Part shown: piece by piece, positions 1-53,100 of the stretch
How positions within the stretch are numbered: the stretch's first letter is position 1
Layout: every line of letters starts with the position of its first letter
Assembly (NCBI GenBank): GCA_964621195.1
Contig: CAZULJ010000002.1
Location: 83,665 to 147,664, forward strand
DNA: 64,000 nucleotides
Reading direction: 5' to 3'
Origin: an uncultured Candidatus Saccharibacteria bacterium
GTDB taxonomy: Bacteria > Patescibacteriota > Dojkabacteria > SC72
Position numbers and translations under genes: made by a program
Notes under the pieces: model-generated
The model's database searches: none
What the model was told of the DNA's origin: nothing
Seen by the model: only the letters and a program-made list of their open reading frames with translations

Positions 1-448
1 ATGATGCATTCCCCCAGTTAACTCCATGTTGGTTAGATGCTGCAAATATGTAGTTATACTGTGTGAAGTATTTACCATACTCTAGTAGGTCTTGCATAAA
101 TGGATCTCCCATATTCTGAGTAACAGTAGTATTAGATCCATGGCTATAGATTATTAATATTGGTGGATTCTTACTATCAATATCTGAGGGAACTACAACA
201 TATGCCTGTTGATCATCGATTATTGGAAAATACTCTTTGTATGGTTCTCCTTCTTCTAAAACAATTTCTTCTGGTTGTGGAGTGGGTAAGGTTTCTTCCT
301 CTTTTACTACTTCCTGTGTATTTGTTTGGGAATCTTGTGTGTTTACGAGAAATACTTTGTAGCACATGTATGCAGGAATGACCAAGAGTAATACAAGTAC
401 TATGAATAGTAGTATGTTTATTAAAACATCTTTTATATTACTTCTCAT
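1..448 (-). CDS. membrane-anchored alpha/beta-hydrolase-like protein (5' part only; gene runs off window start)
   Basis: Manual minus-strand translation from ATG at 448-446: MRSNIKDVLINILLFIVLVLLLVIPAYMCYKVFLV... N-terminal TM helix, then PILIIYSHGSNTT (HG-type oxyanion motif typical of esterase/lipase-fold hydrolases). Frame stays open to coordinate 1. Absent from ORF track because no stop codon lies within the window. Confidence 0.4.
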   Translation of the reverse strand, partial: MRSNIKDVLINILLFIVLVLLLVIPAYMCYKVFLVNTQDSQTNTQEVVKEEETLPTPQPEEIVLEEGEPYKEYFPIIDDQQAYVVVPSDIDSKNPPILIIYSHGSNTTVTQNMGDPFMQDLLEYGKYFTQYNYIFAASNQHGVNWGNAS

Positions 449-558
449 ATATTGCCCCACCTAACTTAGTATATCATATCAAGAATTGACATACTTAGTT
501 AATTGAAATATTATTTTATTTAATTGCCCTCGATTTAATATATTATTCTATATACCCA

Positions 559-1314
559 ATGCCTAAAGAAAAGAGTACGGCCCAAGAGAGCAGTAAGGAG
601 ATAGTGTTGAACTTAGACTCATTTGTAGTTCCAATGTCTATCGTTCTTGCTGGTGTAATTATTGCAGGTGCAATATTTTTAACTAACAACAAAGGTACTA
701 CACCAGAGGTTGAGGGTACAAATGATGGTACAAACAATGCAGCACAGGAAGAATTTCCTGCAGCAGAGACTACTATTGCAGATGCTCCATATGCTGGAGA
801 CAAGAGTAAAGCTAAGGTAGCTATTGTTGAATTTACAGATTATCAGTGTCCATATTGCCAAAGGCATGATCAGGAAACAAAGGCAGATATTATCAAGAAC
901 TATGTAGATACTGGAGATGCTATCTATGTATTTAGAGAGTTCCCATTGGATTTCCATGGTCAGATTGCAATTGATAGTGCAAATGCAGCTCTTTGTGTGA
1001 ATGAGATTGCTGGATTTGATAAATTCTATGAGTATCATACAAAAGCCTTTATGGTTGCATCTAAAGATGCTTTAGTAACATTAGCACAGGATATGGGTGT
1101 TGATATGAACAAGTTTAATACATGTTTAACCGAGAACAGATATCAAGATGCAATTGATCAAGGGTTAGAGGATGGTATAGCTGCTGGTGTACAGGGTACT
1201 CCAGGATTTGTAATTGGTGTTTTAGGTAAGGATGGTTCTGTTAAAGGTAAGTTAGTTGCTGGTGCATATCCATATGATTCATTTGCTCAAATTATTGATG
1301 AGTATTTGAAGTAA
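559..1314 (+). CDS. DsbA/BdbD-family thiol:disulfide oxidoreductase (thioredoxin fold, CPYC active site), N-terminal TM anchor
   Basis: 251-aa ORF; N-terminal hydrophobic segment, VAIVEFTDYQCPYCQRH active-site motif, thioredoxin-like length and layout. Confidence 0.8.
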   Translation: MPKEKSTAQESSKEIVLNLDSFVVPMSIVLAGVIIAGAIFLTNNKGTTPEVEGTNDGTNNAAQEEFPAAETTIADAPYAGDKSKAKVAIVEFTDYQCPYCQRHDQETKADIIKNYVDTGDAIYVFREFPLDFHGQIAIDSANAALCVNEIAGFDKFYEYHTKAFMVASKDALVTLAQDMGVDMNKFNTCLTENRYQDAIDQGLEDGIAAGVQGTPGFVIGVLGKDGSVKGKLVAGAYPYDSFAQIIDEYLK

Positions 1315-2530: not shown

Positions 2531-2627
2531 AATTTATTTTCCCTTCTAAAATATATCATATATTTTTTACAAAAATATATATGAACAAATTGATATGCGT
2601 AAATCTTCTCAGTAAAATATTACTAAG

Positions 2628-2885
2628 ATGAAAAATAGAAAGTATACAAAGACAGAATTTAGTAAAGGTCCTTCTGAAGCAATTTCTTTTGTAAGAGATG
2701 GTGCAACTCTACATGTTAGTTACAAAAGTACAAAGGAACCAATTCCCGTTATTTCTACTAGTAAGAAAGTCTCTAAGAGAAGTAAAAGGGCTTTTACCTA
2801 CGAGAATTTAAAACATTTAATTGTATCCGAACCTAGGTTTGGTAATAGTGCTGAATATTTTCATAAAGAAAGAAGGAAAATATGA
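2628..2885 (+). CDS. putative type II antitoxin (VapB-like) of vapBC-like pair
   Basis: 85-aa basic ORF whose stop overlaps the downstream PIN-domain gene by ATGA (2882-2885). Gene order and size fit an antitoxin; no fold assignment possible by eye. Confidence 0.45.
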   Translation: MKNRKYTKTEFSKGPSEAISFVRDGATLHVSYKSTKEPIPVISTSKKVSKRSKRAFTYENLKHLIVSEPRFGNSAEYFHKERRKI

Positions 2886-3250
2886 ACGGGTATGTTTTAG
2901 ATACTAGTTTTGTAAGTGCCTTTGGGAATAAAGCAGACTCTAACCATGAAACAGCATTAGAAATTGTAAAAGAATTTGATACAAATTTGCTTATTTTAAT
3001 TCCTGTAGTAGTTCTGGCGGAGATATCACGTATTAAGATATCTAATCTTAGGGAAAGGGCTCTTGATGTATGCTTAGAAACATTTGATAGTATACTTGAG
3101 GTAGAAGAATCAAATATTGAAGAATATTTGGATTCCTCAAAGAAATTACCAAAAAGCTGTACAGCTATTGATTCTCTCCTGTTGTATTTTGCAATTGCAT
3201 ATGATTGTAATTTAGTTACATTTGATAAAGGTTTGTTGAGATTAGTATAA
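2882..3250 (+). CDS. vapC: PIN-domain ribonuclease toxin (VapC-like)
   Basis: 122 aa. MNGYVLDTSFV (first acidic residue), LAEISRI (Glu), AIDSLLL and VTFDKGLL (later Asp residues) match the four-acidic-residue PIN signature. Translationally coupled to the upstream small ORF. Confidence 0.75.
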   Translation: MNGYVLDTSFVSAFGNKADSNHETALEIVKEFDTNLLILIPVVVLAEISRIKISNLRERALDVCLETFDSILEVEESNIEEYLDSSKKLPKSCTAIDSLLLYFAIAYDCNLVTFDKGLLRLV

Positions 3251-3282: not shown

Positions 3283-4230
3283 ATGAAATTAGTTATATAT
3301 ATGCCTGCATTGAATGAAGAGGAAGGAATATCTGATGTAATACAGTCATTACCAAAGGATATTGAGGGTATTGAGGAGGTAAAGGTATTGGTTGTTGATG
3401 ATGGTAGTACAGATGATACTGCTAAGATTGCAAGGAGTAGTGGTGCTGATGTAGTTAGTCATGGTGTGAACAAGGGTGTTGGTAGTGCTTTTCAGAGTGC
3501 TGTACAGTATGCGTTGGAAAATGGTGTAGATATATTGGTAAGTATTGATGCTGATAGGCAGTTTAACAGTGATCAGATCCCTCAAATTATTAAACCTCTT
3601 TTAGAAGATAGAGCTGATATGGTAACGGGTAATAGGTTTGAGAAGGGTATTCCTGAGAATATGCCTAAGAGTAAGTATTGGGGTAATGAGCAGATGTCCA
3701 AACTTATCTCTTTAATTAGTGGTCAAAGATTTAGGGATGTATCCTGTGGTTTTAGGGCATACAACAGAGAGGCATTGATGAGATTGAATTTGTTTGGGGC
3801 TTTTACATATACACAAGAGACTATCTTAGATATGGTTTTTAAGGGTTTAAGGGTAGTAGAGTTTCCTGTAGATGTAATATATTTTAAAGAGAGGAAGTCT
3901 AGGGTAGCTGGTAGTATTGTTAAGTATGCTCTTAGAACGTCTAAGATAATTCTAAAGACTTTAAGGGATTACAAGCCTATGCTTTTCTTTGGTGGTATGG
4001 GTGGGATACTGATTGTAATTGGATTGGTTATGGAGATTGGTTTGGGTGTTCATTTTCTTTTGTCAGGGGATTTTACTCCTTACAAGTTTATTGGTTTTAC
4101 TGGGTTTGGGTTTTTAGTTTTTGGTTTACTGTTAGTTATAGTTGGTTTACTTGCAGATATGTTTAACAGAGTAAGGGTTAATCAAGAGAGAATACTGTAT
4201 GAGTTAAAGAGAGAGAGGTATGATGAGTAA
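3283..4230 (+). CDS. GT2 polyprenyl-phosphate glycosyltransferase (DPM1/GtrB/ArnC-like) with C-terminal TM helices
   Basis: 315 aa. LVVDDGSTDDT, SIDADRQF (DxD-type region), C-terminal two hydrophobic helices as in dolichol/undecaprenyl-phosphate sugar synthases. Confidence 0.8.
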   Translation: MKLVIYMPALNEEEGISDVIQSLPKDIEGIEEVKVLVVDDGSTDDTAKIARSSGADVVSHGVNKGVGSAFQSAVQYALENGVDILVSIDADRQFNSDQIPQIIKPLLEDRADMVTGNRFEKGIPENMPKSKYWGNEQMSKLISLISGQRFRDVSCGFRAYNREALMRLNLFGAFTYTQETILDMVFKGLRVVEFPVDVIYFKERKSRVAGSIVKYALRTSKIILKTLRDYKPMLFFGGMGGILIVIGLVMEIGLGVHFLLSGDFTPYKFIGFTGFGFLVFGLLLVIVGLLADMFNRVRVNQERILYELKRERYDE

Positions 4231-18544: not shown

Positions 18545-19627
18545 ATGAAAGCATTAATACTAGCAGGAGGAAGAGGAACAAGACTAAGACCTCTTACACA
18601 TACTAAGAACAAACATGCTCTACCAATTGGTAATAGGCCAATGATAGAGAGGATAATATTAGATGCAGTGGATTTAGGAATAAAGGATGTAATCATCAAT
18701 GTAAATGTAGGCGATACTGAAATGAGAGAGCTCTTAGGTGATGGTAAAAGATTTGGGTGTAAGATTTCTTACATTGAACAACCAGAACCAAATGGAATGA
18801 TGTATCCAATTAAGTTAGCAGAGAAATTAATCGGGGATGATGAATTTCTCTTCTCAGCAGGAGACAATATCCTAACAGGTGGTCTTAAACAACACTATGA
18901 AGATTTTAAAAAGAAAAAATCAGATGCTCATGTATTAGTAGTTAAAAGACCTGACTATCAAAACTTTGGTGTAGCTGTAATGAAGGATGGAAAGATAGTA
19001 AAGACAGTAGAGAAACCTAAAGAGTTTGTAAGTGATTTGGTCCTTTCTGCAATATATTTCTTTACACCTGCGGTATTCAAAGCCTTTGATCATGTAAAAC
19101 CAATAGATCCTAAAGGAACAGGAAAACCAGAATACTATCCGCCAGTAATTAACAACTGGATGATAGAGAATGGATATACAATGACAGCATCAGAAGTAAC
19201 AGGGTGGTGGAAAGATACAGGGGCACCAGAAGATTTAATACTTGCTAATAGACTAATACTTGAAAGAGAGGTGTTAGACATATGTGATGGTAAAGTAATA
19301 GATTCACATATAGAGGGAAGTGTAGAGATAAAGAATGGTGCAAAAGTAAAAAATAGTACCTTAAGAGGTCCTATCTCCATTGCAGAGAATGCAATAGTAG
19401 AAGATTCATACATAGGACCTTTTACATCAATTGGTGAAGGCTGTGTAGTTAAAAATGTTGAGATAGAAAACAGTATCCTAATGGGAAACTGTAATGTCCA
19501 TGATTTAGACAGAAGATTAGATAGCTGTTTAATAGGATGGAATGCAGAAGTAACAAGTAAAAATGGTCATCCTAAAGCAGACAGACTCTTCATCGGAGAT
19601 GATTCGAAAGTTGAAATTCATAAATAA
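18545..19627 (+). CDS. rmlA: sugar-1-phosphate nucleotidyltransferase (RmlA-like, long form with C-terminal left-handed beta-helix)
   Basis: 360 aa. MKALILAGGRGTRLRPLT nucleotidyltransferase signature. C-terminal 120 aa has hexapeptide-repeat character (archaeal/long-type G1P thymidylyltransferase layout). Position within the rmlBACD block. Confidence 0.75.
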   Translation: MKALILAGGRGTRLRPLTHTKNKHALPIGNRPMIERIILDAVDLGIKDVIINVNVGDTEMRELLGDGKRFGCKISYIEQPEPNGMMYPIKLAEKLIGDDEFLFSAGDNILTGGLKQHYEDFKKKKSDAHVLVVKRPDYQNFGVAVMKDGKIVKTVEKPKEFVSDLVLSAIYFFTPAVFKAFDHVKPIDPKGTGKPEYYPPVINNWMIENGYTMTASEVTGWWKDTGAPEDLILANRLILEREVLDICDGKVIDSHIEGSVEIKNGAKVKNSTLRGPISIAENAIVEDSYIGPFTSIGEGCVVKNVEIENSILMGNCNVHDLDRRLDSCLIGWNAEVTSKNGHPKADRLFIGDDSKVEIHK

Positions 19628-19644
19628 ATTGATATAGAAAGAGG

Positions 19645-20193
19645 ATGGAATTTAAAAGATTAAGTATTCCAGATTTAGTGTTGATTACTCCTAATATATT
19701 TGGTGATAATAGAGGATTTTTTAAGGAAACATACAATGAGAAGATTTTTAAAGAGAATGGTATAGATATTAAATGGGTACAGGATAATCACTCTAGATCC
19801 TCCAAGGGAGTCTTAAGAGGTCTTCATTGGCAAAAGGGTGAATTTGCTCAGGATAAACTCGTAAGAGTTGCAACGGGAAAGGTACTTGATGTTGCTGTAG
19901 ATATTAGAAGGGATTCTCCAACTTTTGGTAAGTATGAAGCAGTTGAGCTGTCCGATGAAAACCACTTTGTATTCCTTGTTCCTAAGGGTTTTGCACATGG
20001 TTTTTTAGTTTTGAGTGAAATTGCGGACTTTGAATACAAAGTAAGTAATTTTTACTCTAAAGAAAATGAAGGTGCCCTTCTTTGGAATGACCCTGATATT
20101 GGAGTAGATTGGCAAATAGGGAATCCTGTACTCTCTGAAAAGGATAAAGGGAATCCAGTTCTTAAGGATATAAATCCTGACGACCTATTCTAA
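19645..20193 (+). CDS. rfbC: dTDP-4-dehydrorhamnose 3,5-epimerase
   Basis: 182 aa. GDNRGFFKETY, RGLHWQ, FLVPKGFAHGF cupin motifs of RmlC. Confidence 0.9.
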   Translation: MEFKRLSIPDLVLITPNIFGDNRGFFKETYNEKIFKENGIDIKWVQDNHSRSSKGVLRGLHWQKGEFAQDKLVRVATGKVLDVAVDIRRDSPTFGKYEAVELSDENHFVFLVPKGFAHGFLVLSEIADFEYKVSNFYSKENEGALLWNDPDIGVDWQIGNPVLSEKDKGNPVLKDINPDDLF

Positions 20194-20210
20194 TTTCTAA
20201 GCTATTAACA

Positions 20211-21047
20211 ATGAAAAAGGTTTTAATATTTGGTTCTAGTGGAATGCTTGGGAGTTTTCTCTCTTCCTTTCTTGAAGAAAAAGGGTATGAGATAGAGAGA
20301 AATGATAGGGCGGATGGGGGTATTGATATTACCTTGGAGGATGAAGTAAAAAGGGTTGTCTTAGAATCTAATCCTGACTTTGTAGTGAATTGCAGTGCAT
20401 ATACAAATGTTGAAAAGGCCGAAGAAGAAAAAGAGATAGCTTTTGAAGTAAATGCAAATGCCCCTAAGTATATGGCACAGGTTTGTAAGGGGTTAGATAT
20501 CCCTTTTGTGCATATATCCACAGACTATGTATTTGGTGAAAATCGAAAGGAAGGATATAAAGAAGACTACAAAAATTTTAAACCACTTAATGTATATGGT
20601 GAATCCAAATTAATGGGAGAGAAGAATATCTTAGAAGTGGGAGGGAAGATATATATTTTTAGAACATCGTGGTTGTTTGGTCCCAATGCTACAAATTTCA
20701 TAGACAAGATTACTAAATATGCTAAGGAGTTACCAGAACTAAAGGTTGTTACAGATGAAGTAGGTTGTCCGACATATGTAGGAGATTTGAGTCAATCTAT
20801 TCTTTCTGCAATTCAGGGTGACATTAAACCAGATATTTACCACATATCAAGTAGGGATACATGTTCAAGAAATGAATTTGCAAAGGAAATATTAAATATG
20901 CAAGGTATAAAAACACCTGTAAAAGAGTCTAAGTTAAAAGATTTTGGAAGGAAGGCAGTAGTGCCAAATAGGTCTCAATTAATTAATACAAAATTACCTG
21001 AAATGAGATCATGGAGAGAGATGTTAAAAGAATATTTGGGTGAATAA
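20211..21047 (+). CDS. rfbD: dTDP-4-dehydrorhamnose reductase
   Basis: 278 aa. MKKVLIFGSSGMLGS Rossmann motif, ISTDYVFGE, characteristic RmlD length. Confidence 0.9.
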   Translation: MKKVLIFGSSGMLGSFLSSFLEEKGYEIERNDRADGGIDITLEDEVKRVVLESNPDFVVNCSAYTNVEKAEEEKEIAFEVNANAPKYMAQVCKGLDIPFVHISTDYVFGENRKEGYKEDYKNFKPLNVYGESKLMGEKNILEVGGKIYIFRTSWLFGPNATNFIDKITKYAKELPELKVVTDEVGCPTYVGDLSQSILSAIQGDIKPDIYHISSRDTCSRNEFAKEILNMQGIKTPVKESKLKDFGRKAVVPNRSQLINTKLPEMRSWREMLKEYLGE

Positions 21048-21058
21048 TAATTAGTAGT

Positions 21059-21087
21059 TTGGAATTCCAAGAAAATATCGTTAAAAT
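21059..21087 (+). promoter_or_regulatory. sigma70-like promoter (TTGGAA-17 bp-TAAAAT) driving the GC-rich leader/RNA element
   Basis: TTGGAA at 21059-21064, 17-nt spacer, TAAAAT at 21082-21087, in the AT-rich stretch immediately 5' of the GC-rich element. Predicted TSS about 21094. Confidence 0.35.
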
Positions 21088-21093
21088 AGGGTT

Positions 21094-21250
21094 GTACAGA
21101 AGCGAAAGCTTCTGTAGGGTGCTGTGAGGATAGGACTCACCATGTACGAAGTGCAAGTCTTCCACCCTAGGTCGAGACCTCCCTACCTCGCTTGGGAAAC
21201 CTCGGGGGTAGGGACACCTCTTGGTACTAATACCCCCATCTGCTAATATA
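21094..21250 (+). ncRNA. GC-rich (~55%) structured RNA element: candidate riboswitch/cis-regulatory leader of the downstream GT4 gene, or independent small RNA (unclassified)
   Basis: About 155 nt of roughly 55% GC in a roughly 33% GC genome, non-coding. Consecutive hairpins: CAGAAGC-GAAA-GCTTCTG (7-bp stem, GNRA loop); TAGGGTG...CACCCTA enclosing GTGAG-GATAGGA-CTCAC; CCTCCCTACC...GGTAGGGA(C)ACC with GGGAAACC tetraloop-like core; alternative pairing GGGGGTA...TACCCCC overlapping the previous helix. Ends 6 nt before the ATG at 21257. Confidence 0.4.
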
Positions 21251-21256
21251 TATACC

Positions 21257-22453
21257 ATGCATTTAATAATTGATTGTACAACTACTCAAAATCAACTTAA
21301 ATACAATGGTATTGGTCAATATACTAAGCACATTGTAAGTAGAATACTAGAAAAGAAAGATATAGATATAACGTTACTCATGTTTGATGGGGAATCTACA
21401 CTAGATCCATACCTTAAAGGAAAGAATATACACATACACAGATTAGGAAAAGTAAAACCCTCTGATTACAAAAATTTTCTTACATATACATTCAAAATAC
21501 TCCCCGCTATTAAACAGTACAAAAAAGAAGACAGTATATATTTCTGTCCTTACTTCTGGATAGGGGTACCATCACTACATATACCCACAGTACTAATGGT
21601 ACATGATTTCATATTACCAATATTCAATATATATTCTGAGCAAAGTATATTTCACAATATATTTAGAGGTATACAGTATTGGATGGAGATGTACAAAGCT
21701 AAATATTGTAAAGCCATAATTACAAACTCCAAATATACAGCAAAAGACTTTATGAAATACTTCCCTAAATACCCTAAACAGAATATATATCCAATATATC
21801 TAGATGGAGAAGTACAAGACTCTAAAGATATACAAGGATGGGATTCTTTCTTACCTAAAGATTACAAAAAGAGAGGATATTTCATATATATGGGAGGAAC
21901 ACTAGGATATAACAAGAATTCAGAAGGAGTAGTAAAAGGATACAGAGAGTTTCTTGCTAAAGTAAAACATGATAGTAAGGCTCCATACTTGGTAATTGCT
22001 GGAAAGAACTTTGCTAAAGAGGTTGATAAAAGGGTCGTAAAGTTTAGAGAGAAGATTGAATGTTTGGGACTAAAAGAAAATGTAATCTTTACAGGCTTCT
22101 ATGAAGATTCTCATATAAAACCACTCCTTAGTAACTCCATCTCTTTTATACATCTCTCATTGTATGAAGGTTTTGGTATTGCATTAGTAGAAGCAATGAA
22201 ATCAGGTACACCTGTAATAGCTCACAATGGATCTTGCTATCCTGAAGTGCTCGAAGATGCAGGAATACTTGTTAACGGTCAGAACCCTAAAGAGGTAGGA
22301 GAGAGCATGTACAAAATATACAAAGACAGGAAGCTTAGAGATGAATTAATAAAAAAAGGTTTACAAAGAGGTAAAGAATTTTCCTGGGAAAATACTACTG
22401 ATATGACAATTGAGGTTTTTAAATCTGTTTACAAAGAATTTTCAATCAAGTAA
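21257..22453 (+). CDS. GT4 family glycosyltransferase
   Basis: ORF track start 21221 is a TTG inside the GC-rich element; ATG at 21257 (MHLIIDCTT...) preferred. C-terminal EGFGIALVEAMKSGTPVIAHNGSCYPEVL is the GT4 E-x7-E region. Confidence 0.8.
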   Translation: MHLIIDCTTTQNQLKYNGIGQYTKHIVSRILEKKDIDITLLMFDGESTLDPYLKGKNIHIHRLGKVKPSDYKNFLTYTFKILPAIKQYKKEDSIYFCPYFWIGVPSLHIPTVLMVHDFILPIFNIYSEQSIFHNIFRGIQYWMEMYKAKYCKAIITNSKYTAKDFMKYFPKYPKQNIYPIYLDGEVQDSKDIQGWDSFLPKDYKKRGYFIYMGGTLGYNKNSEGVVKGYREFLAKVKHDSKAPYLVIAGKNFAKEVDKRVVKFREKIECLGLKENVIFTGFYEDSHIKPLLSNSISFIHLSLYEGFGIALVEAMKSGTPVIAHNGSCYPEVLEDAGILVNGQNPKEVGESMYKIYKDRKLRDELIKKGLQRGKEFSWENTTDMTIEVFKSVYKEFSIK

Positions 22454-22503
22454 GATACCTGTATGTTGTGTTCTTACTTTACATATATGATTGGAAAGTA
22501 CAA

Positions 22504-23778
22504 ATGAATATTCTTTTTACACCTATCACTAGTAGTTCTATAGCTCATGTTATTAGAAGTTTTGCATTAGCAGAAGAATTCCTTAAAAATGGAGACAAAG
22601 TGTATTTCACATCCTGTACAAGTAAGGCAAGTTTTATCGAAAACCAAGGATATGAAATTGTAAAAACATACAAACCTTTTAATCTTAATGACCCTAAAGA
22701 TCAATCTGTAAACTATTTAGCAACACACAAAGAAGAAATGATTGATTGGTTGGGTGCAGAAATAGAGGCAGCAAAACAAGTTAAAGCAGATGTTGTGATT
22801 ACTTCACCTGGATTTTTTGGTCCTCAAGTAGCATTTGCAACTGAAATACCTGTAGTAGCTTTAATGAATGGACAATATCTACCTAAGTCTAAAGGTTTAA
22901 TGGGTATTTCCTTGGCTACTGATAGTACAAAACACAAAATTTTGAGAAAATTACTTAATCCTGTATTTAAGAAATCTTTTGTTAAGAACTATCTTTCTGA
23001 AATATTAGATGCTTACAGGAAATTGGGTATAACCCAAGAGATAAAGAGTAGAGAAGAGCTTTATGCTCCAATGCATATACTCATACCTGGTGATGACGAA
23101 TTTGAACCACAGCTAGAATTAGATGGAAGAACTAAATATGTCGGACCTATATTCTGGAATGGTTTCGAAAAGATGAAAACAGATTTAACAGAAAAAAAAC
23201 TTGAGGAATTCAAGGGAAACTCAAAATTGGTGCTTATAAACTTTGGAGGTAGTGTATTTGAATTAGAAACATATCGTAGAATTCTTAATTTCATTAAAGA
23301 CTTAGATGCAAAGGTAATTGTTGCTCTTGGTCCAAATTTCCCAAGGGAAAAATTCCAGAAGGACAATGATAGTTTGATAATAAGGACTTATATTCCAGGA
23401 TTAAGAGTTTCTAAATACGCAGATGTGATTGTAAATACGGGTTCTCAGGGGGCAATAATGCAAGCATTAGAAAATGGTAAGCCAGTTGTATCATTCCCAG
23501 TAGGTATAGATCAGGCATATTTTGCAAACAGATTAGAAGAAATGGGCTTAGGTATTAATGTAAACAAAACTAGTATATTGAAGTTTTCTAAAAGAGAAAG
23601 CTATCAAATAAAGGATGATACTGTTCCAGCAAAAATATTGGAAGCAGTATCAGAGATATTAAAAAATCCAGTATATACAAAGAATGCATATGAATATTCA
23701 TTAAGATTAAAGGCAAAGAATTACAAACCAAGAAAAACTGTTGTACAATTTATATATGATTTAGTTGAAAAGAAATGA
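22504..23778 (+). CDS. GT1 family (UDP-glycosyltransferase/MGT-like) glycosyltransferase
   Basis: Start taken at MNILFTPITSSS (internal ATG at 22504). C-terminal NTGSQGAIMQALENGKPVVSFPVGIDQAYFANRLEEMGLG matches the GT1 UDP-sugar binding signature region. Confidence 0.7.
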   Translation: MNILFTPITSSSIAHVIRSFALAEEFLKNGDKVYFTSCTSKASFIENQGYEIVKTYKPFNLNDPKDQSVNYLATHKEEMIDWLGAEIEAAKQVKADVVITSPGFFGPQVAFATEIPVVALMNGQYLPKSKGLMGISLATDSTKHKILRKLLNPVFKKSFVKNYLSEILDAYRKLGITQEIKSREELYAPMHILIPGDDEFEPQLELDGRTKYVGPIFWNGFEKMKTDLTEKKLEEFKGNSKLVLINFGGSVFELETYRRILNFIKDLDAKVIVALGPNFPREKFQKDNDSLIIRTYIPGLRVSKYADVIVNTGSQGAIMQALENGKPVVSFPVGIDQAYFANRLEEMGLGINVNKTSILKFSKRESYQIKDDTVPAKILEAVSEILKNPVYTKNAYEYSLRLKAKNYKPRKTVVQFIYDLVEKK

Positions 23779-25982
23779 TATTAGGATTTATATCGTTATT
23801 TATAATCATTCTCCTTTGTACTTTTATTATTTACAAAGTACTTAAAGAAAAGAGTCTCTCTAATGCAGAGAAAAGGCAAACCTTCTCGATATTAGTCTTT
23901 TGGGTTATACTTTGGTCACTATCTATTTTAGTTACAGATCTCTTTAGCCAGAACCACACAGTGGCTCTTTGGGCGTCTAGATTTTCATTTGTAACCTCTG
24001 CCCTTATTGGATATTGGTACTATCTTTTCGTAAGAACTTACTATGAAGGGAAACACGCTCTTCTTGGAAAGATTTTTTGGGGTATTATTTCTTTTGTATT
24101 TGTAATTCTTTCAATTACGGACGGAATAGTTAAGGATGTTGTATATTCCGAAAATCACCTACAATCAATTAGAGGTGACTTTAATATATATTTCGTCATC
24201 TATACAGGAATAATTTTCTGTTACTCTGCAATCTTGTTCTTCGCAGCTTACAAAAGAGAGCAGAACCTTGTAACAAAAGCACAAATATTCTACATCTTCC
24301 TTGGTTCTATGCTTTCTATACTTAGTTCCTTTAGTACAAACTTAATATTTCCAATACTTGAATTTAACGAAATTAGAGCATTAGGACCATTAAGCCTAAT
24401 TTTTTTCATCCTTGCAACCTACTATGCAATTTTAAGATATCGATTTCCAAGTACAAAACTAATAGTGAGTAAACTGGTATATGTTCTCTTTATCTCGATT
24501 GTACCATATGCAATATTTCATCTTGTTTCCTTTGTGCAAAATATCGTTTGGGGTGGAATATATGAACCCGAAGCATTGGTAACAGGATATTTGTACTCTG
24601 CACTTTTTGTTTTCCTTTTTGTATTTGCGAATGAGAAATTAGATGTAATAGTTAAGAAAGTTTTTTACGATTACAATATTGATATTCAAGAGGAAAAGGA
24701 GAAACTAATCATTGTTTTCAATGATACCTTAGATGTAAGTGTAATTCTTGATAGAACTCAAAATTTACTTAAAAGAATATTTAATTCTCCAACAAAGATT
24801 TTGATAACGAAAAACGGTAAAATATTGGAGGATTTTAAATCGTATGGGCTTTCGTTGAATGATATTGCAGATTTAGAACTCTTAGAGACAATTAAACAAC
24901 CATTAATAAAAGATGAGCTAATGCATGTTGATGGGAAAGAATCATTCAGACATCTCTTTGAGAAATATAATCTTCGAGTAATTTTTCCAATCCAAAAATC
25001 TAGCCTAATTGACTGGAATGTGTATATTACAATTGAAGATGGTAAAGCAGCAAAAACATACTCTATTCAGGATTTAGAATATATTAGATCAGTTGGATCT
25101 TCTATGGCAATCTCTTTGCAAAGAGCTTTCTTGTATCAAGAAGTTGAAGTATTTAATAAGTCTCTTCAAGAGAAAGTAAATGAACAAACCAAAGAATTAC
25201 AAATTAAGGTTAAAGAATTAGAAGAAGCAAGAAGGAAAGAAGCAGATATGATAGATATAATGGGGCATGAATTAAGAACACCCGCTACTGTTGTAAAACT
25301 AAATGTTGAACTTCTTGAGAAATTTATTGAGAGTAATCCTGCAGAATTTAAAAAATATATAGACAGAATCAAGAAGTCTGTAGAAACCGAAATAGGATTA
25401 ATCAATACATTGCTTACATCTGCTAAATTAGAAGGGAATAAGGTTGAGATAAGACATGATAATGTAGATATTAAAGCAGAAATAGAAATGGCTGTTCATG
25501 GTCATGAGATTGATTTTGAAGAGAAGGGTATTCAATTTAATAACAATGTAAATCCAAATACTCCTAATGTATATGTGGATAAGGTAAGAGTAGTAGAAAT
25601 CCTTAATAACTTAATTAGTAATGCAATTAAATATACTCAAAAGGGGAATGTAACTGTGTCTACTAAGTATGATGATAATTTTGTTACAGTAAGTATTCAG
25701 GATACTGGAAAAGGAATACCTAGAGAGAATCTACCGAAATTAGGAGAAAAATTCTATAGAGTAGATAACTACCTTGGTTCTGAAATAGTAAGACCTGGTG
25801 GTACGGGACTTGGTTTGTATGTTACATTTGGTCTTGTAAGGCTTATGGGTGGTGATATGTGGGTAGAGAGTGAGATAGGTAAGGGTAGTACATTTTCTTT
25901 TACTTTGCCAATATATAAAGGGCAAAAGATTGGAAGTAGTGATTCAAGAAATATGTTTGAAAAGCTAGGACTAAAGAAATAG
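23775..25982 (+). CDS. sensor histidine kinase with N-terminal polytopic (about 7 TM) sensor domain; no cognate response regulator nearby
   Basis: 735 aa. N-terminal 250 aa with about 7 hydrophobic helices, central region, H-box IMGHELRTPATVV, N-box LISNAIKYT, G-boxes DTGKGIP and GGTGLGLY. Confidence 0.8.
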   Translation: MILGFISLFIIILLCTFIIYKVLKEKSLSNAEKRQTFSILVFWVILWSLSILVTDLFSQNHTVALWASRFSFVTSALIGYWYYLFVRTYYEGKHALLGKIFWGIISFVFVILSITDGIVKDVVYSENHLQSIRGDFNIYFVIYTGIIFCYSAILFFAAYKREQNLVTKAQIFYIFLGSMLSILSSFSTNLIFPILEFNEIRALGPLSLIFFILATYYAILRYRFPSTKLIVSKLVYVLFISIVPYAIFHLVSFVQNIVWGGIYEPEALVTGYLYSALFVFLFVFANEKLDVIVKKVFYDYNIDIQEEKEKLIIVFNDTLDVSVILDRTQNLLKRIFNSPTKILITKNGKILEDFKSYGLSLNDIADLELLETIKQPLIKDELMHVDGKESFRHLFEKYNLRVIFPIQKSSLIDWNVYITIEDGKAAKTYSIQDLEYIRSVGSSMAISLQRAFLYQEVEVFNKSLQEKVNEQTKELQIKVKELEEARRKEADMIDIMGHELRTPATVVKLNVELLEKFIESNPAEFKKYIDRIKKSVETEIGLINTLLTSAKLEGNKVEIRHDNVDIKAEIEMAVHGHEIDFEEKGIQFNNNVNPNTPNVYVDKVRVVEILNNLISNAIKYTQKGNVTVSTKYDDNFVTVSIQDTGKGIPRENLPKLGEKFYRVDNYLGSEIVRPGGTGLGLYVTFGLVRLMGGDMWVESEIGKGSTFSFTLPIYKGQKIGSSDSRNMFEKLGLKK

Positions 25983-39558: not shown

Positions 39559-39613
39559 TTTGTATTGAAAAATCTTTAATCTACTGGTATTATTCTTTGT
39601 TTATATCTGAACT

Positions 39614-39686
39614 GGGTGTATAGCTCAATTGGTAGAGCAAACGGCTCTTAACCGTTAGGTTCAGGGTTCGAGCCCCTGTACACCCA
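39614..39686 (+). tRNA. tRNA-Lys (anticodon CUU), CCA not encoded
   Basis: Manual cloverleaf: acceptor GGGTGTA/TACACCC, D-arm GCTC-AATTGGTA-GAGC, anticodon stem AACGG/CCGTT with loop C-T-CTT-A-A (U33, A37), 5-nt variable loop, T-arm CAGGG-TTCGAGC-CCCTG, discriminator A. Confidence 0.9.
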
Positions 39687-39697
39687 TTTCCTCTTTT

Positions 39698-46106: not shown

Positions 46107-47114
46107 ATGAAAAAAGTTGAATACAAAGTAGAGGTTTTTACAGGTATTAGACCATCTGGTGGTCTTACTATTGCTAATGCTATTGGTGCTGTAAACCCTA
46201 TTGTAAAACTACAAAATGAAGAAGAGATAGGTAATACGATGGTATTTGTAGCAGACTTACATGCTTTAACTGATGGTGAACCAAATGAGACACAGGGTCA
46301 TGTATTGGATGTTGTTAAGGACTATATCGCACTGGGTTTGGATCCTAAAAGAAACAGTATATTTGTACAATCCTCTTTAATTCAGGAGATCGGTGAATTA
46401 AATTTATATCTTTCAAGACTAGTAACTATTGCCGAGTTAATGAGAGTACCAACATTAAAGGAGAAGATAAAGAAGGGGCAGAATGAGAGTAATGCCAATT
46501 CTCTTTTAGCTATGTACCCTATTATGATGGCATCTGATATTCTTTTGCAAAGATCTGAGTATGTACCTGTTGGTGAGGATCAGGTTGCTCATATTGAGAT
46601 TACTAGAGTATTAGCACAAAAATTTAACAAGAAGTATGGTGAGACATTACCATTGCCAAAGGTTTTATCCTTAGGTGCACCAGTGAGAGTAAAGTCTTTA
46701 AATGGTAACGGTAAGATGAGTAAGAGTGATCCTAGTGGAGCAATACTGCTTGATGATCCAATAGAAGTATCCCTTAACAAGATTAAGAGAGCTCAGACAG
46801 CATTCGCGAAGGAGAGCTCAGATTCTCTAGATGCTTTAATTATGATTGGTGAGTATGTTTCAAATGAGGAGGAGAAAGAGCAGTTGAAGGGAATAATTAA
46901 GAGGCATTATGAAGGTGAGAATGTTATGGGTGAATTTAAATCTGCTTTGAGTATTCCATTAGAGAGATTCTTAACAGAGTTCCAATCTAAAAAGAATGAG
47001 ATTAGTAACCAGGATATTGAAAAGAAAATTATAGAGGATTGTGCAATAGCGAAAAAGAATGCTCAAGAAACTATCTCTATGGTTCGCAAGGCAATGGGTT
47101 TAAGATATATCTAA
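46107..47114 (+). CDS. trpS: tryptophan--tRNA ligase
   Basis: 335 aa. FTGIRPSGGLTIANAIGAV (TrpRS-type HIGH region), GKMSKSDPSG (KMSKS), typical TrpRS length. Confidence 0.85.
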   Translation: MKKVEYKVEVFTGIRPSGGLTIANAIGAVNPIVKLQNEEEIGNTMVFVADLHALTDGEPNETQGHVLDVVKDYIALGLDPKRNSIFVQSSLIQEIGELNLYLSRLVTIAELMRVPTLKEKIKKGQNESNANSLLAMYPIMMASDILLQRSEYVPVGEDQVAHIEITRVLAQKFNKKYGETLPLPKVLSLGAPVRVKSLNGNGKMSKSDPSGAILLDDPIEVSLNKIKRAQTAFAKESSDSLDALIMIGEYVSNEEEKEQLKGIIKRHYEGENVMGEFKSALSIPLERFLTEFQSKKNEISNQDIEKKIIEDCAIAKKNAQETISMVRKAMGLRYI

Positions 47115-50100
47115 ATCTTTTGAATCTTTAATTTCCTGCTTACAAGCATCTTTCCTTTGGACTCTATTTCTGTATTACCTTCAACAATTTTTACACTGTT
47201 GTCTGTTGTTTCTATTACAAATTCCCCTTTCTCAGAGATATCAAATGAGTACTTTCCATTTTCATCTGTAACTCTCTTTGCAACAATTTTGTCAAAATCT
47301 TTGTCTTTAAGTACCAAGGTAATATTTGAAGCTGGTGTTCCATCGGTATATGTTACCTTTCCGGATTTCTTACCCAAAGAGGTGAAGCTTTTAATCAAGA
47401 CATAGGTTGTTGGTATGTACAGGAGTAGGAGTGCAAGATTTGCTAGGCTTGATTCTTTGTTGTATACGTAGAGTGCTGTAGTTACTCCTGCCAAGAAGAG
47501 TATGCTGTTTAGGAATGGTAGTATCAAAGAGATTCCACTTCTAATTACTGTCAATGTTTTTTGGTTGGAGAGATCCTTTTTGGGATCCATGGGTATTACT
47601 ACATTGATCTCATTTTCTAACAATCTAATCTTTTCTCCGTGGTATACATTTGAAAGTGGGTAGTCTTCTCTTCCAATTATTAATCTTGATGGGAATGAGA
47701 AGTTTCTTTTCTTAACTTCGAGTATGTAATCTCCTGCTTCTAAACCAACTCTAAAGAGACCTTGCCCATCTGTCACACTGGTTTCTACAAGTTTCTCGGA
47801 TAGATCATATATTCTAACTATAGCTTGTTGAAGTGGGGCTCTTGTGACTGAATCATATACATATCCTGATGGGAATCTTTTTCTCCTAAACCCTAATGTA
47901 CTCAGTATATTTATTACAACTTGTGAAATTGAGTATCCAAGCTGTCCAATATTTCCTAGTACAGAGGCTAAACTTACAGATACTGTTACTGCAGTTGTTG
48001 TTGCTGCAACTGTTGTAAGTTGTTCCTGTTCAATATTCCCCAGTGGTGTTTGATCCAAACTCTCAATTGTTTTTGTAATTGCTCCTTCTACTGCTTGGGT
48101 TATTACTTTTGTTACACTACTTTGTGGTGTACTTGTGGGAGTTTCTTTTTCCTGGGTAATAATTACTTCTCCTTGTCCACCAGTTCCTACTAAACCATCT
48201 GCAATCCAATACATTACTCCTGATACGCTTGCTTGGGAGACTGTTACATCAGATCCTTCGACTTTTTGTTTTTGTGGGAATGTCCCAGTATAGAGGACTC
48301 CATTTGGACAATCTTGTGATACTTCTTCTAATGTAGTGGCTTCTGGACATATTCTAAAACCGTTATCACTGTCTTTCTTTACAACATACATTGTAAATTT
48401 GTCTGTTAAACCGTGTGTTTGATTAATTTTAACAACACTCTTTCCCTCGGATGGGGATGATTTGATTATTGCATTACTCCAATCTCTGTTGTCTGTAAAT
48501 GAAATAGGGAGATCGGCGACTATATACTCATCTGTAAGTACCCTTACTTTTTGTGTTCCTGTTTGTGCTCCATCTATAGTACTAACATCTATTTGTGTAT
48601 TATCTACAAGTGCTGTTGTTATTTCTTCTGGCTTGTTTACAATTATGGAGTATGTTTTACCAGTGTTACTCTCTACATAGTTTGTTTCTACATTAGAACT
48701 GTTTATAGCCTTTGCTCTGAAGGAGTACTGAACCCCTGGTTCTAGATTCCTAAATATTATCCCACTAGTACCACCCCAAGAGGTATAGCTTCCCCAGACT
48801 GGACTATCGACTAATGTTTGGGTTGAGTAATCAAGATATTTCCCGCTGTTCTTTTCCTGTATTGCGAATCTAGTCGAGGAGGGATTTGTATTTCTATCAA
48901 ATTTGATCCTACCAGTACTTCCTCCAATTGTCTCAAATGTAAGATCTTTTGGTGTATTTGCCCATGTTGTAACTGTTACATTTTCAGACCATTGAGAGTA
49001 TACATTATCTGAATTTACTGTTCTGACTTTGAATGTATATGTTGTATTGGGTGGTAGATTAGAGAGTGTGAAATTACTTGTTACCCTTGTATCTGTGTGC
49101 AATACAGTACTGTTTGTAAACCTGTTCTCATTATCTATATTACCATTTGTAGTGACTTCCAGTAGTTGGTAGGTAGTATTTGTTGGGTTACCATTCTTGT
49201 TCACAGTGATCTCAATTGATGATGAGCCTGTTACCCTTGTTGTTAATGTAGATGTCTTTGAGAGTGTATATGCACTTAAGCTTTGTGAGCATGGTGTTTG
49301 TATATTTTCAATATTCTTTGCTTTTACACAGAATGTATACAAGGTATTGGGAGATAGGTTTTGAATATTTAACCCAGTAAATCCTCCAATTTCTTCATAT
49401 GTTTTCCAAAGAGTTTGCGATGTCAAAGATGCACTATCTACACTCTTGTTGCTGATTGTTTCTAGAAGATTGTAAAGTGTTGTATCGTTGTTTCCTCCGT
49501 TGTTTACTACTACCTTTACTGTTGTTGTATCAATTGCCTCTACAGATACTATGCTTGGTGAGTTTGAGAGTGTAGTAACAGTTTGTTCTCCGCTAAATGC
49601 AGTATCAACAAGATCGATGTTTTGAGCTTTTGCTCTGAAGGTGTATGTAATATTAGGATTAAGACCATATATTGTAATTCCATCTGTAAGTCCTAGCTGT
49701 GTGTATGTTGAGTAGTAGGGGGACTCTTGTAGTAATTGTGTTTCAGAGTTAAGGTAGAGGCCGGAAGTTTTCTCTTCTATGAGATATTTTGTAACTTCTG
49801 GATTTTCTTTGATATCTATCTTTACTGTTATACTCTCTGCGTCATAGTTTCCTTGTTGTATATCAAATATTGCAGGTGTTTGAGCGAATGTGCTGCCCTG
49901 TACTGTGTTTGAGAAATCACTCTCTGCAATATTGTTGTAGATCTTAAATTTGCGAGTATATGTTGTATTTGTTTGTAAAGAATCCTCTGTACATGAGGTT
50001 ATACCATCACCTAAACATGTTTTAAGTAAATCTCCGCTTTCATTGTAGACTTTTATACCTAATACTGTGTCTGAGTAAGCAGAAATTCTCCATGTTATCT

Positions 50101-53100
50101 GGCTATCTGAATTTACTGTTGGTGTTAAAGCTGTGATATTTGAAAGTGCTGTTGTAGAAGATTGTGTTGCTGAGTAAGCTGTCTCTATGAGATCCATATT
50201 TCTTGCTTTTACTCTGAATGTATATGTAATACCTGATTGTAGTCCAGATACTGTTATTGTAGGTGTTAAACCATCTAAATGTCCCCATACTGGTGTAGGT
50301 TCAAGTAATCCTGTTGAAAGGTTTACATACATTCCTGAGTAAGTTTCCTGTAAGAGGAGCTCTGTGTGGTTGGGATTTGTTTCTTTGTTAATTTGTACAT
50401 CTATTTGTGAGCTGTTTAATGTTGTTGCATTCTCAATACTTGGGACAACTGCTAAGGTCCATGCGGCTACTTCTGAGGAGTAACTTGTTTCTTCCCCTGT
50501 ATAGTTTCGAGCTTTTACTCTAAAAGAGTACTCACTGTTTGGTTGAAGATTGATTGCAACATCTGTAGTACTTTTAACCCAATCTTGTATACCAGTGTCA
50601 CACTCCTCTATTGTGCAGTCAAAGAATATTCCAGAGTCTCCTGCTGATAGATTTTGAACTCCTGTCCCACTAAGCGAAATTGATGTTGTTGAGAGTGGTC
50701 CTGCTGTTAATGTTGGTATTGGTGCGTGAGTATATATATTTAGATCTGTGGAGTAACTTGTTTCAATATTGTCATTGTTTCTAGCTTTTACTCTGAATGT
50801 GTATCCAGTATTGTTTGTTAGTCCTGTTACATTGGCACTGTTTGTTGTTGTCCATGTATTAAGGTTTGTATCACAATCTCCCTCGCAATCAAAGTAGAGT
50901 TCTCCTCCGTTTACTGGCTGAGAGGCCAGTATCGTTATCGATGAAGAAGTTTTACTGCCTTGGTATTGTAGAGTAGGGACAGATATTAATGTGTAGACAG
51001 AATCTGTGTTTGATCCACTACTATCTGCTTCTGTATTGTAAGCTACAGCATATCTAGTATATTGTGTGTTTTCTGAAAGTGTTGTTTCATCGCAGTATGT
51101 AATGTTTTCTCCTGTACATGTCTTAACTAAGGTATTGTCCTGATCATATATCTTAATACCCTGTTCTCCATTTGCGTTATCTGTAAATGACCAACGGATC
51201 GAAGTTGTAGAAAGTGCTTGTCCAACCAAGTTAGTTGGTGTCCCTGGTAGGTCTAATGTTCTAAATGTATTTGTTGCAGACCAATTACTTACTGATCCTG
51301 ATGTATCCCAGAATCTAATTCTCCAGTAGTAAGTGGTTCCATCTTGATTAAGTGTACTACCATTGTAAGTAATTGCTGAGGATCTTAAATTGTTTATGAG
51401 ATTTGGCATAGATATTTGCCCAGAATCCCACATTACTGTTCCAGTAAAAGAGGAGTTTGTATTGACTTCTACTTCGTAGTAATTTGCAGGATCATTGTCT
51501 GCATCAGTGTGTATTGCTGTAAATGACGGAGTTAAATTTGTAAGTTGTGTCGGATTTACAAGTCCATCTGTTTGTAGAGAGGATGGAGCATCAGGTACCC
51601 TGTTCATTGTAAAAGATCCTCCGTTTGTCCAGTTACTTACAGTGTTATTGCTATCCCAGAATCTAATTCTCCAGTAATATGTTGTACCGTTTAATGTCAG
51701 TGGTACACCATTGTAAGGTATATCAGTACTTCTACTTCCACTTGCAATCGGTGTTGTAGCAATTTGCCCCGAATCCCACATTACTGTTCCAGTAAAAGAG
51801 GAATTAGTATTAACCTCTATTTCGTAGTAATTACCTGTGTCTCCATCGGGATCTGAAAAGAGTGCTGAAAATTCCGGAGTTGTGTCGATTACTCTCGTTG
51901 GAGAGAATACACCTTCGACAAATGGTGTTAGAGGAGAGTTCGGAGTTGTATTCATTCTGAAATTTGCAACTGTAGACCAGCTACTTACTGTCCCATGGTT
52001 ATCTGTAAACCTAATCCTCCAGTAATATGTTGTACCGTTTAATACTAATAGTGTCCCATTGTATGGTATATCTGGACTTTTTGTTCCGCTTGCGGTTGGT
52101 GTCATTGCTGTTTGTCCGGAAGACCACATAACGGTTCCTGTAAAGGAGGGGTTTGTATTTACATCTATTTCATAGTATACCCCCATGTCACCAATATCTA
52201 AGTCGTCAAATTCTGCACTAAATTCTGGTGTGAGATCTGTAACTCTTGTAGGATTGTTAACACCTTCTGTCAAAAGGGTTGTTGGAATGCCTGGAGTAGT
52301 GTTCATATTGAAATTCGCGGTAGAAGACCAAGATCCAACTGTACCATAGTTGTCGGTAAATCTAATTCTCCAGTAATATGTGGATCCATTTAGTGAAAGT
52401 GCCGATCCTGAATATGAGACATCAGGGCTTCTTGCTCCGATTGCAATTGAAAGCATTGGTACCTGTCCGGTGTCCCACATCACTGTTCCAGTAAATGAGG
52501 AGTTTGTATTTACCTCTATTTCGTAGTAGCTTGCGGTATTTCCAGAGTTTGGATCGTTAAAGATTGCGCTAAACTCAGGTGTAGTATCTGTTATCCCCGT
52601 AGGATTTGTTGCAGCTTCAATTAAAAGGGAAGTTGGAGCACTAGGTGCTGTATTCATGGCAAAAGTCGCTGTAGATGACCAGGACCCTACGGTCCCATGG
52701 CTATCTGTAAATCTAATTCTCCAGTAATATGTTGTACCGTTTAATGTAAGTGCGATTCCTGTATATGAAAAGTCTGGACTCCTTGAGCCTATTGCTGTTG
52801 AAACCATTGGAACTTGACCAGAGTCCCACATTACTGTTCCTGTAAAAGAGGAGTTTGTATTTACCTCTATTTCGTAGAAATCTGCAGTATTACCAGAGTT
52901 TGAATCATTAAAGATTGCACTAAATTCTGGAGTGGTATCTGTTACACCAACTGGATTTGTAGCTCCTTCTGAAAGTAGTGATGTTGGTGCTGCTGGAGCT
53001 GTGTTCATTGTGAAGTTTGCAACAGATGACCAAGTGCCTACCGCTCCATAATTATCTGTAAATCTAATTCTCCAGTAATATGTAGTTCCATTTAGTGAAA

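Follow-up and report, generated by a model that had tools for sequence, protein, structure and literature searches.

What is the GC-rich island between rmlD (20211-21047) and the glycosyltransferase family 4 (GT4) gene (ATG at 21257, end at 22453) in the 64,000-nt stretch of contig CAZULJ010000002.1 analyzed here (the window), and does it control the gene that follows it? Both genes were assigned by Pfam, which also places rmlD last in an rmlB/rmlA-like/rmlC/rmlD run. An earlier note on this DNA, made from the sequence, had taken the island for a structured RNA of ∼155 nt and had offered two roles for it, a riboswitch- or thermosensor-like leader of the GT4 gene or an independent small RNA of the size of 6S or signal recognition particle (SRP) RNA. 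Our analysis upholds the structured RNA, does not support the leader, and allows an independent small RNA unlike 6S or SRP RNA. The element is a conserved structured RNA of the + strand, and the window holds an orphan copy of a new, rare, and undescribed structured-RNA family. Members of this family are found in WS6/Dojkabacteria-related bacteria of the Candidate Phyla Radiation (CPR) and also in at least one contig that is phage-like. The named homologues of the GT4 protein come from candidate division WS6/Dojkabacteria, so the organism from which the window derives is a CPR bacterium. CPR bacteria (Patescibacteria) are uncultured and have tiny genomes, and to our knowledge almost no non-coding RNAs have been characterized in them beyond the universal ones.

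When GC content was computed in 100-nt windows, it was 0.53-0.54 over 21100-21249 and 0.26-0.40 on either flank; overall, the island has ∼54% GC and its surroundings ∼30%. The RNA of 21094-21222 (129 nt) has a predicted folding energy of -54.8 kcal/mol (z = -3.4), and none of 200 shuffled sequences was as stable; a longer 176-nt stretch gave z = -2.2 on either strand. The unit that is conserved in homologues is shorter than the ∼155 nt first estimated, being a core of 106 nt (21113-21218), or ∼125 nt with its 5' hairpin. The parts of the element and the promoter-like site before it are as follows.

21059 to 21087, + strand: promoter-like TTGGAA-17-TAAAAT (consensus scan, chance-rate matches)
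21095 to 21116, + strand: H1', the 5' hairpin, 9 bp with a GAAA tetraloop, its last 2 nt shared with Pa (sequence and fold)
21115 to 21169, + strand: three-way-junction domain made of Pa and hairpins 1 and 2 (covariation, RNAalifold, and manual alignment)
21115 to 21121 with 21163 to 21169, + strand: Pa, 7 bp
21124 to 21140, + strand: hairpin 1, with the invariant 7-nt loop GAUAGGA at 21129-21135
21148 to 21162, + strand: hairpin 2, with the invariant 7-nt loop UGCAAGU at 21152-21158 and an invariant closing G-C pair
21170 to 21179, + strand: Pl, the mini-hairpin GGUC-GA-GACC (manual alignment)
21180 to 21214, + strand: Pc, the long hairpin, 11 bp with a bulged G, an internal loop, then 2 bp and a GNRA tetraloop
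21215 to 21220, + strand: 3' tail CACCUC (alignments)

Most of the helices that had been read from the sequence by eye are among these parts. The nested arrangement of TAGGGTG/CACCCTA enclosing GTGAG/CTCAC is present and covaries in homologues, as does the pairing of CCTCCCTACC with GGTAGGGA, which is the long hairpin at 21180-21214. The perfect 7-bp hairpin with a GAAA loop is also present, at 21095-21116, where it has 9 bp, or 7 if the adjoining helix forms fully. Hairpin 2 abuts the 3' strand of Pa with a 0-nt spacer, and the linker between hairpins 1 and 2 is 6-7 nt long across the variants. The structure of Pl is kept with other sequences (GAUUC-AA-GAAUC in locus L040 and GGAG-GUA-CUCC in locus L050), the Pc tetraloop is GAAA at 21196-21199 in the window and GAAA or GCAA across the variants, and the CAC of the tail is invariant in all variants. 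Two further pairings were considered and set aside: a global closing helix GGGUG/CACCU, which appears in the minimum-free-energy fold of the single sequence and is not conserved in L040, and the CACCUC tail as an anti-Shine-Dalgarno sequence against the GGAGGUG of an associated open reading frame (ORF, described below), which is only partly conserved.

Homologous copies were found in several settings. The copy at locus L001 is identical to that of the window. The copy at L013 is ∼94% identical and begins exactly at TGTAGGGTG (window 21113), and in L013 the core is preceded by a different hairpin and by an ORF of 69 aa. When one genome per species was scanned with 19-mers, only the window's own species (L035) was found, and an 18-mer scan of JGI metagenomes gave one true match (L037, which resembles L013) and three chance matches. 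Using the 69-aa ORF as the query, we recovered 8 protein clusters at 69-100% identity, which led to two diverged clades that both contain the whole module. In one of these, at loci L040-L049, the order is HisKA, ORF, and RNA, followed by a convergent 211-aa gene, M23 peptidase, and SecA. In the other, at L050/L051, the module lies in a contig that we call phage-like for its HNH endonuclease, DNA methyltransferase (phrog_67), and Mor-like late activator. When a covariance model of the variants was run, every locus gave a single match, at 97-134 bits, and the window gave no other; with one copy in the window and one per locus, identity as a repeat or a miniature inverted-repeat transposable element (MITE) was rejected. 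On either side of the module in the L050 contig lie ∼450 nt of noncoding sequence (2550-3000 and 3400-3840) with a GC content of 42-48% compared with ∼35%; these flanks may hold further structured RNA, and they have no Rfam match.

The earlier note had matched the element to no known RNA family and had proposed an Infernal search of Rfam and a covariation analysis; both were carried out. A search of Rfam 15 with the whole window at gathering scores, and with 20950-21350 at E <= 10, returned nothing relevant, and neither did a search with L040 and L050 at E <= 1. This includes the riboswitch aptamer classes (GEMM-I/II and others), which gave no match in Rfam 15 at gathering or relaxed E-values, and 6S, SRP, and RNase P RNA, for which there was no Rfam match and whose single long irregular hairpin is not the three-way junction plus two hairpins seen here; the element is thus neither 6S- nor SRP-like. 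No transfer-messenger RNA (tmRNA) was found by ARAGORN or Rfam. The window has neither an RF02968-type match, as expected of a DUF3800-associated RNA, nor a DUF3800 gene. Hammerhead, HDV-like, and SRP domain IV RNAs were compared by eye and rejected for misfitting junction lengths and motifs. In a viral collection, a 16-mer scan gave chance matches only, gapped patterns gave 0 matches in one scan and 2 chance matches in another, and a protein-alignment search gave 0 matches. The literature searched contained no description of the motif.

Covariation was assessed over 8 distinct variants from 3 clades, with one alignment made by hand and a separate one derived from the covariance model. By the manual alignment, compensatory double changes have affected 15 of the 37 pairs, and non-canonical cells occur at only 2 pair positions. 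Examples are Pa, which changes from UAGGGUG/CACCCUA to UGGGAUG/CAUCCCA, a swap of GAAG/CUUC for AUGG/CCAU, and the pairs beside the tetraloop, which change from GG/CC to CC/GG. In the model-based alignment, 89.4% of the cells are paired and 13 pairs have both sides changed, compared with 37-60% and 1-5, respectively, for slid partners, and the covariation score was reached by none of 500 shuffles; this alignment misplaces Pl and Pc of L040, so these figures understate the support. Within the three-way-junction domain, 6 of 16 pairs have changed on both sides and 92-100% of the cells are paired. RNAalifold by itself recovers Pa, both hairpins with 7-nt loops, and Pc. These data support the helices across the variants, and the U-G pairs in Pc assign the RNA to the + strand. 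Two ORFs, one of 91 aa on the minus strand and one of 40 aa on the plus strand, were considered as coding explanations of the conservation; both are ruled out by the 1- and 2-nt indels that separate the clades and by substitutions that track the helices.

Two pairs of loci bear on selection. Between L013 and L037, the 69-aa ORF differs by 11 synonymous codons and 1 non-synonymous codon (94% nucleotide identity), which shows that it is a real gene, and the cores differ at one loop base in 106 nt (99%). Between the window and L035, the only differences over 20706-21524 are one Pc pair and the promoter spacer, the pair (21190/21203) being G-C in the window and A-U in L035, L013, and L037. A copy that lacks the ORF is therefore either still constrained at the RNA level or swapping alleles with copies that are. 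The window and L035 (a species-representative metagenome-assembled genome) share 96.5% identity over 6.9 kb, and their divergence is mosaic: in 19116-25982, single-nucleotide differences are dense at 19279-19394, 20120-20560, 21748-22184, and 25283-25971, and the remaining stretches are identical. Such mosaic divergence suggests frequent recombination.

In its fuller form, the element is the last part of a small module. The core follows the 69-aa ORF in L013, L037, 9 of the 10 L040-L049 loci, and L050/L051; the sequence of L043 ends at the ORF. Two of the settings of the ORF-bearing module lie before a GT4 gene, another is where genes converge, and another is the phage-like contig. The copies that lack the ORF are those of the window, L001, and L035, and no copy of the ORF is present anywhere within the 64-kb window. 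The order of the module in L013/L037, L040-L049, and L050/L051 is promoter (for example, TTGAAT-17-TAGAAT in L013), 5' untranslated region (UTR), Shine-Dalgarno sequence, hydrophilic 69-aa ORF, a hairpin (H1), and core. H1 has 10-14 bp and an unrelated sequence in each clade, and the same position is taken by a strong hairpin of unrelated sequence in every copy other than that of the window (10-14 bp in L013, L040, and L050). The 5' UTR ends in GGAGUGUGG, which is followed by a spacer and the Shine-Dalgarno sequence GGAGGUG, and in folds of the whole transcript CCACACUCC, after the ORF, pairs with this 5' repeat. An invariant 9-nt inverted repeat, GAGUGUGGC/GCCACACUC, brackets the ORF (L013:2545-2553 and 2800-2808; also in L037, L040, and L050) and, judging from the folds, could form a stem for RNase III-type processing or for mRNA circularization. 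In the L040 group, with the exception of L048, Pc is followed by CACC and then by UUUUUAUUU, a U-run, and the next gene is convergent. The 69-aa protein has 7 representatives among 1.84 billion and no Pfam, PHROG, or NCBIfam family, and its AlphaFold model (pLDDT 57) is too poor for a structure search. In every copy, the core lies at the 3' end of a + strand unit.

The copy in the window has no such ORF before it. Its left flank (21048-21114) has no homologue in the fetched loci outside the window's own species. The promoter that had been noted there, TTGGAA-17-TAAAAT, is present at 21059-21087, and matches of this kind occur at the rate of shuffled sequence (3 found, 2.9 expected). A transcript starting ∼7 nt past this site would begin at the foot of the 5' hairpin. 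The site's -35 hexamer lies within a perfect 12-nt palindrome, TTGGAATTCCAA, at 21059-21070, which could be an operator or merely an EcoRI-type palindrome.

Could this RNA be the leader of the GT4 gene? It lies directly upstream of that gene in the window clade and in L013/L037, and it has GNRA loops and possible alternative pairings of repeated UAGGG/CCCUA motifs, as a riboswitch or thermosensor might. The promoter of the GT4 gene, however, lies downstream of the element.

21221 to 21256, + strand: native GT4 promoter, outside the element (conservation in 8 GT4 loci)
21221 to 21226, + strand: GT4 -35 hexamer TTGGTA, 17 nt from the -10 and also present in the element-free L015
21241 to 21249, + strand: GT4 extended -10 TGcTAATAT (TGnTAATAT), about 5-7 nt before the ATG at 21257

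The motif CTGCTAATATATACC-ATG is kept in all 8 distinct GT4 loci, with or without the element (those without it being L015, L012, L006, L002, L009, and L014), and from this conservation we infer that TTGGTA-17-TGcTAATAT acts as the gene's own promoter, a sequence that fails the 9-of-12 consensus rule of our scan. The GT4 start codon has no Shine-Dalgarno sequence, and its mRNA is probably leaderless; in contrast, the small 69-aa ORF has a perfect GGAGGUG. Since the GT4 promoter starts right after it, the element ends at ∼21220, and with that promoter downstream and the start probably leaderless there is no expression platform. The competing helix that had suggested a switch, GGGGGTA (21204-21210) with TACCCCC (21231-21237), can be written from the sequence, both strands being present, but TACCCCC sits in the variable 17-nt spacer of the GT4 promoter. 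Each related locus has a different spacer sequence, which in the three other members of the window's clade reads CTCATTCTCCC (L035), CTAACATCTTC (L013), and CTAGTACATTC (L037), so the alternative pairing is not conserved.

The distribution of the element also separates it from the GT4 gene. Orthologues of GT4 at 70-81% protein identity have no GC island upstream, and synteny shows that the element is absent from the GT4 orthologue loci P0002, P0003, P0005, P0007, P0008, P0009, and P0010. Conversely, it occurs away from any GT4 gene in L040 and L050: the L040 copies face a convergent gene, with no same-strand gene downstream, and the L050 copy is followed by a 440-nt gap before the next gene. 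Based on these results, and with no riboswitch match in Rfam, we conclude firmly that the element is not a leader controlling GT4. That it acts as a GT4 switch is very unlikely, and the leader explanation as a whole is largely refuted and keeps next to no probability.

How, then, did the element come to lie before GT4? In relatives, this slot usually holds a gene for a 160-aa DUF456 membrane protein or is empty (L002-5, L009-11, L012, L014, and L015-24). In L006-8, it holds a DUF3800 gene and a DUF3800-IX RNA; in L006, this RNA lies at 389-459 (+) (RF02968, 60.6 bits) and adjoins the DUF3800 gene at 461-1078 (-). In L034, the slot contains an AAA_21/AbiEii-like ATPase and a 107-aa ORF. The cargo of the slot thus varies by strain, being DUF456, DUF3800 with its RNA, the ATPase with its ORF, the small-ORF/RNA module, or nothing. 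Because the cargo differs between strains, the slot upstream of GT4 is an insertion hotspot, and the element reached it by insertion. L001, whose RmlD is identical to the window's, has an AAA_14/DUF4143 gene in place of rmlB.

What might such an RNA do? Our best explanation of the whole, to which we give an even chance, is a new family of structured RNA that forms the 3' end of a transcript and has a junction resembling the tRNA elbow. The sequence of hairpin 2, G-[UGCAAGU]-C, agrees with the signature of a T-arm (G-[U N C R A N N]-C) except for the G at position 55. The likeness to an acceptor stem and T-arm is one of sequence: Pa has 7 bp and its 3' strand adjoins hairpin 2 (0 nt), but the T-like stem has 4 bp and loop position 2 is G. 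Both invariant loops hold a U-N-N-R-A pentad (UAGGA and UGCAA), which is compatible with the T-loop definition (PMC4810234), and in the interdigitated double T-loop two such pentaloops intercalate, as in the tRNA-elbow receptor of the T-box, RNase P, and the L1 stalk.

The mechanism that we propose, an elbow combined with processing, is tentative and reads as unlikely to, at best, possible. The two invariant loops would dock like the D- and T-loops of tRNA, with hairpin 2 stacking directly on the 7-bp helix, as a T-arm does on the acceptor stem, and with loop 1 supplying a D-loop-like GG. With the loops docked, the transcript would end in a compact knob resembling the elbow, and Pc would be a putative terminator. 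The knob might mark or protect the transcript end; alternatively, enzymes of tRNA processing might cut it out as a stable small RNA. In the presumed native form, the core would be the 3' part of a compact unit of promoter, ORF, H1, and core, with a U-run in one clade. The window copy has neither the ORF nor its 5' UTR, and a promoter-like site and a different 5' hairpin precede its core; its RNA could be transcribed from the TTGGAA-17-TAAAAT site or be the end of the rml transcript, and it would remain under selection for pairing. The sole tRNA gene in the window, tRNA-Lys(CUU) at 39613-39687 (+), has no encoded 3' CCA, its acceptor being followed by ATTTCC, so this organism must trim 3' ends and add CCA.

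Several results weigh against this explanation. The variants come from only three clades, so the independent substitution events are few, and the window copy is possibly a recently orphaned remnant whose compensatory pair came from recombination with an L013-like allele. The Rfam tRNA model gave no match in 20950-21350 at E <= 10, and ARAGORN reported nothing at normal settings and inconsistent calls only at lowered thresholds. The domain has no anticodon arm, its T-like loop has G at position 55, and Pa is followed by GGUC, GAUUC, or GGAG rather than by NCCA. In the window, Pc is not followed by a U-run and the scan of 20800-21500 gave 0 terminator-like sites; L048 also lacks the U-run. Because the models do not call the domain and it has neither an anticodon arm nor NCCA, membership among tRNAs or tmRNAs fails; the likeness that we claim, by analogy, is that the element may work like part of a tRNA, not that it is one. 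A bolder form of this explanation, which we regard as doubtful, is a new class of tRNA-elbow-mimicking RNA in CPR bacteria and their phages, in which a small-protein mRNA would end in a knob that has no anticodon arm and consists of a minimal acceptor/T-arm plus a D-like hairpin. This knob would be excised by RNase P/RNase Z in the manner of mascRNA, yielding a stable small RNA, or would be a decoy for tRNA-binding factors or a place for them to dock (candidates are the CCA-adding enzyme, anticodon-nuclease-type defenses, and the ribosome). If so, it could persist and be selected on its own after loss of the ORF.

Other explanations fit parts of these data. The element might be a plain transcription terminator, insulator, or 3' stabilizer, with no specific tertiary fold or partner, whose GC-rich hairpins would end or shield the transcripts that come before it (rml operon, small ORF). 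Its constant position at the 3' end of a + strand unit is what this predicts, as are the U-run after Pc at the convergent gene end of the L040 group and the strong hairpin of arbitrary sequence, H1, that precedes the core. Unlike terminators, however, the element keeps its two 7-nt loops, a 13-nt block (GAGGAUAGGACUC), and its junction invariant while its stems covary, and the ORF has 72-75% nucleotide identity between clades. There is no U-run in the window, L013, L037, or L048, and the terminator scan was negative. By the definition of an intrinsic terminator as a stem with a U-run within 0-2 nt, even the L040 group falls outside, its U-run coming only after the 4-nt CACC. We therefore consider a plain terminator or stabilizer unlikely. 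Distinctly unlikely, in our judgment, is that the RNA is a partner or cis-regulator of the 69-aa protein, which would bind the loops of the three-way junction in autoregulation or in a small ribonucleoprotein (RNP), leaving the window copy as a leftover or decoy. RNA and ORF are strictly linked in 3 of the 4 architectures, both are rare and narrowly distributed, and the 5'/3' inverted repeat would circularize the ORF beside the RNA. Yet in the window, L001, and L035 the RNA persists under selection without the ORF, of which the 64-kb window has no copy; the protein has no recognizable RNA-binding domain, and its structural model is of low confidence.

The compactness of the element, the strong conservation of its junction and loops, and a phage-like context with insertion hotspots, which is shared by many small ribozymes, are also what would be expected of a new self-cleaving ribozyme or other processing RNA in a phage-derived cassette. 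It matches no Rfam ribozyme family, however, its junction strands of 2, 7, and 0 nt misfit the hammerhead core, and there is one copy per locus, so that a ribozyme is very improbable. Hardly any probability attaches to a DNA-level feature (a recombination or attachment (att) site, or a protein operator) or to a decaying, functionless scar. The element does lie at the edge of a slot with strain-variable cargo, and a T-arm-plus-acceptor-like sequence is typical of tRNA-derived att sites, but compensatory changes and strand-specific G-U pairs indicate selection at the RNA level, and the analysis revealed neither an integrase nor a target duplication nor a second copy.

Apart from the locus of the element, the window contains a 2286-aa ORF (47111-53971, -) with about six tandem repeats of 348-351 nt (117 aa) at 51255-53246, which are 64-73% identical; a set of 28-nt repeats at 48700-50803 lies inside the same ORF, whose product is probably a repetitive surface protein.

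The finding of a covarying, compact RNA with two invariant loops, in chromosomes and in a phage-like contig and kept without its ORF, makes it a candidate for a new RNA function in CPR bacteria, such as tRNA mimicry, 3'-end processing, or a role in an RNP. It also cautions against taking every GC island that directly precedes a gene for its leader. Among known systems, EAR (eps-associated RNA) and other processive-antitermination RNAs resemble the element in its cell-envelope polysaccharide locus (rmlD/GT4); unlike EAR, the element has no Rfam match, its L040 copies have no co-directional downstream gene, and GT4 has its own promoter. Intrinsic terminators and stabilizing hairpins of 3' UTRs share with it the terminal GC-rich Pc, the U-run in one clade, and the position at a unit end. 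Intrinsic terminators differ in that the element has a conserved three-way junction upstream and a conserved spacer of 4 nt (CACC) before the U-run, and that most of its copies, including that of the window, have no U-run. The DUF3800-I to -X RNAs (RF02968) are likewise small, GC-rich, covarying orphan RNAs tied to a small gene, and the DUF3800-IX RNA of L006 occupies the same insertion slot upstream of a GT4 orthologue, but the element matches them in neither sequence nor structure and has a different partner gene. The remaining comparison is with tRNA-like structures, namely the tRNA-like domain of tmRNA, the tRNA-like structure (TLS) of turnip yellow mosaic virus (TYMV), and the mascRNA of MALAT1, the last of which is processed by RNase P and RNase Z. 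The element differs from these in having no anticodon arm and no NCCA, G rather than U at loop position 2, a T-like stem of 4 bp rather than 5, and two extra hairpins that follow. At the level of sequence, it resembles them in a 7-bp closing helix that runs directly into a short stem whose 7-nt loop has the T-arm form, and in a second loop with GG, as in a D-loop, and like mascRNA and the viral TLS it lies at the 3' end of a longer transcript.

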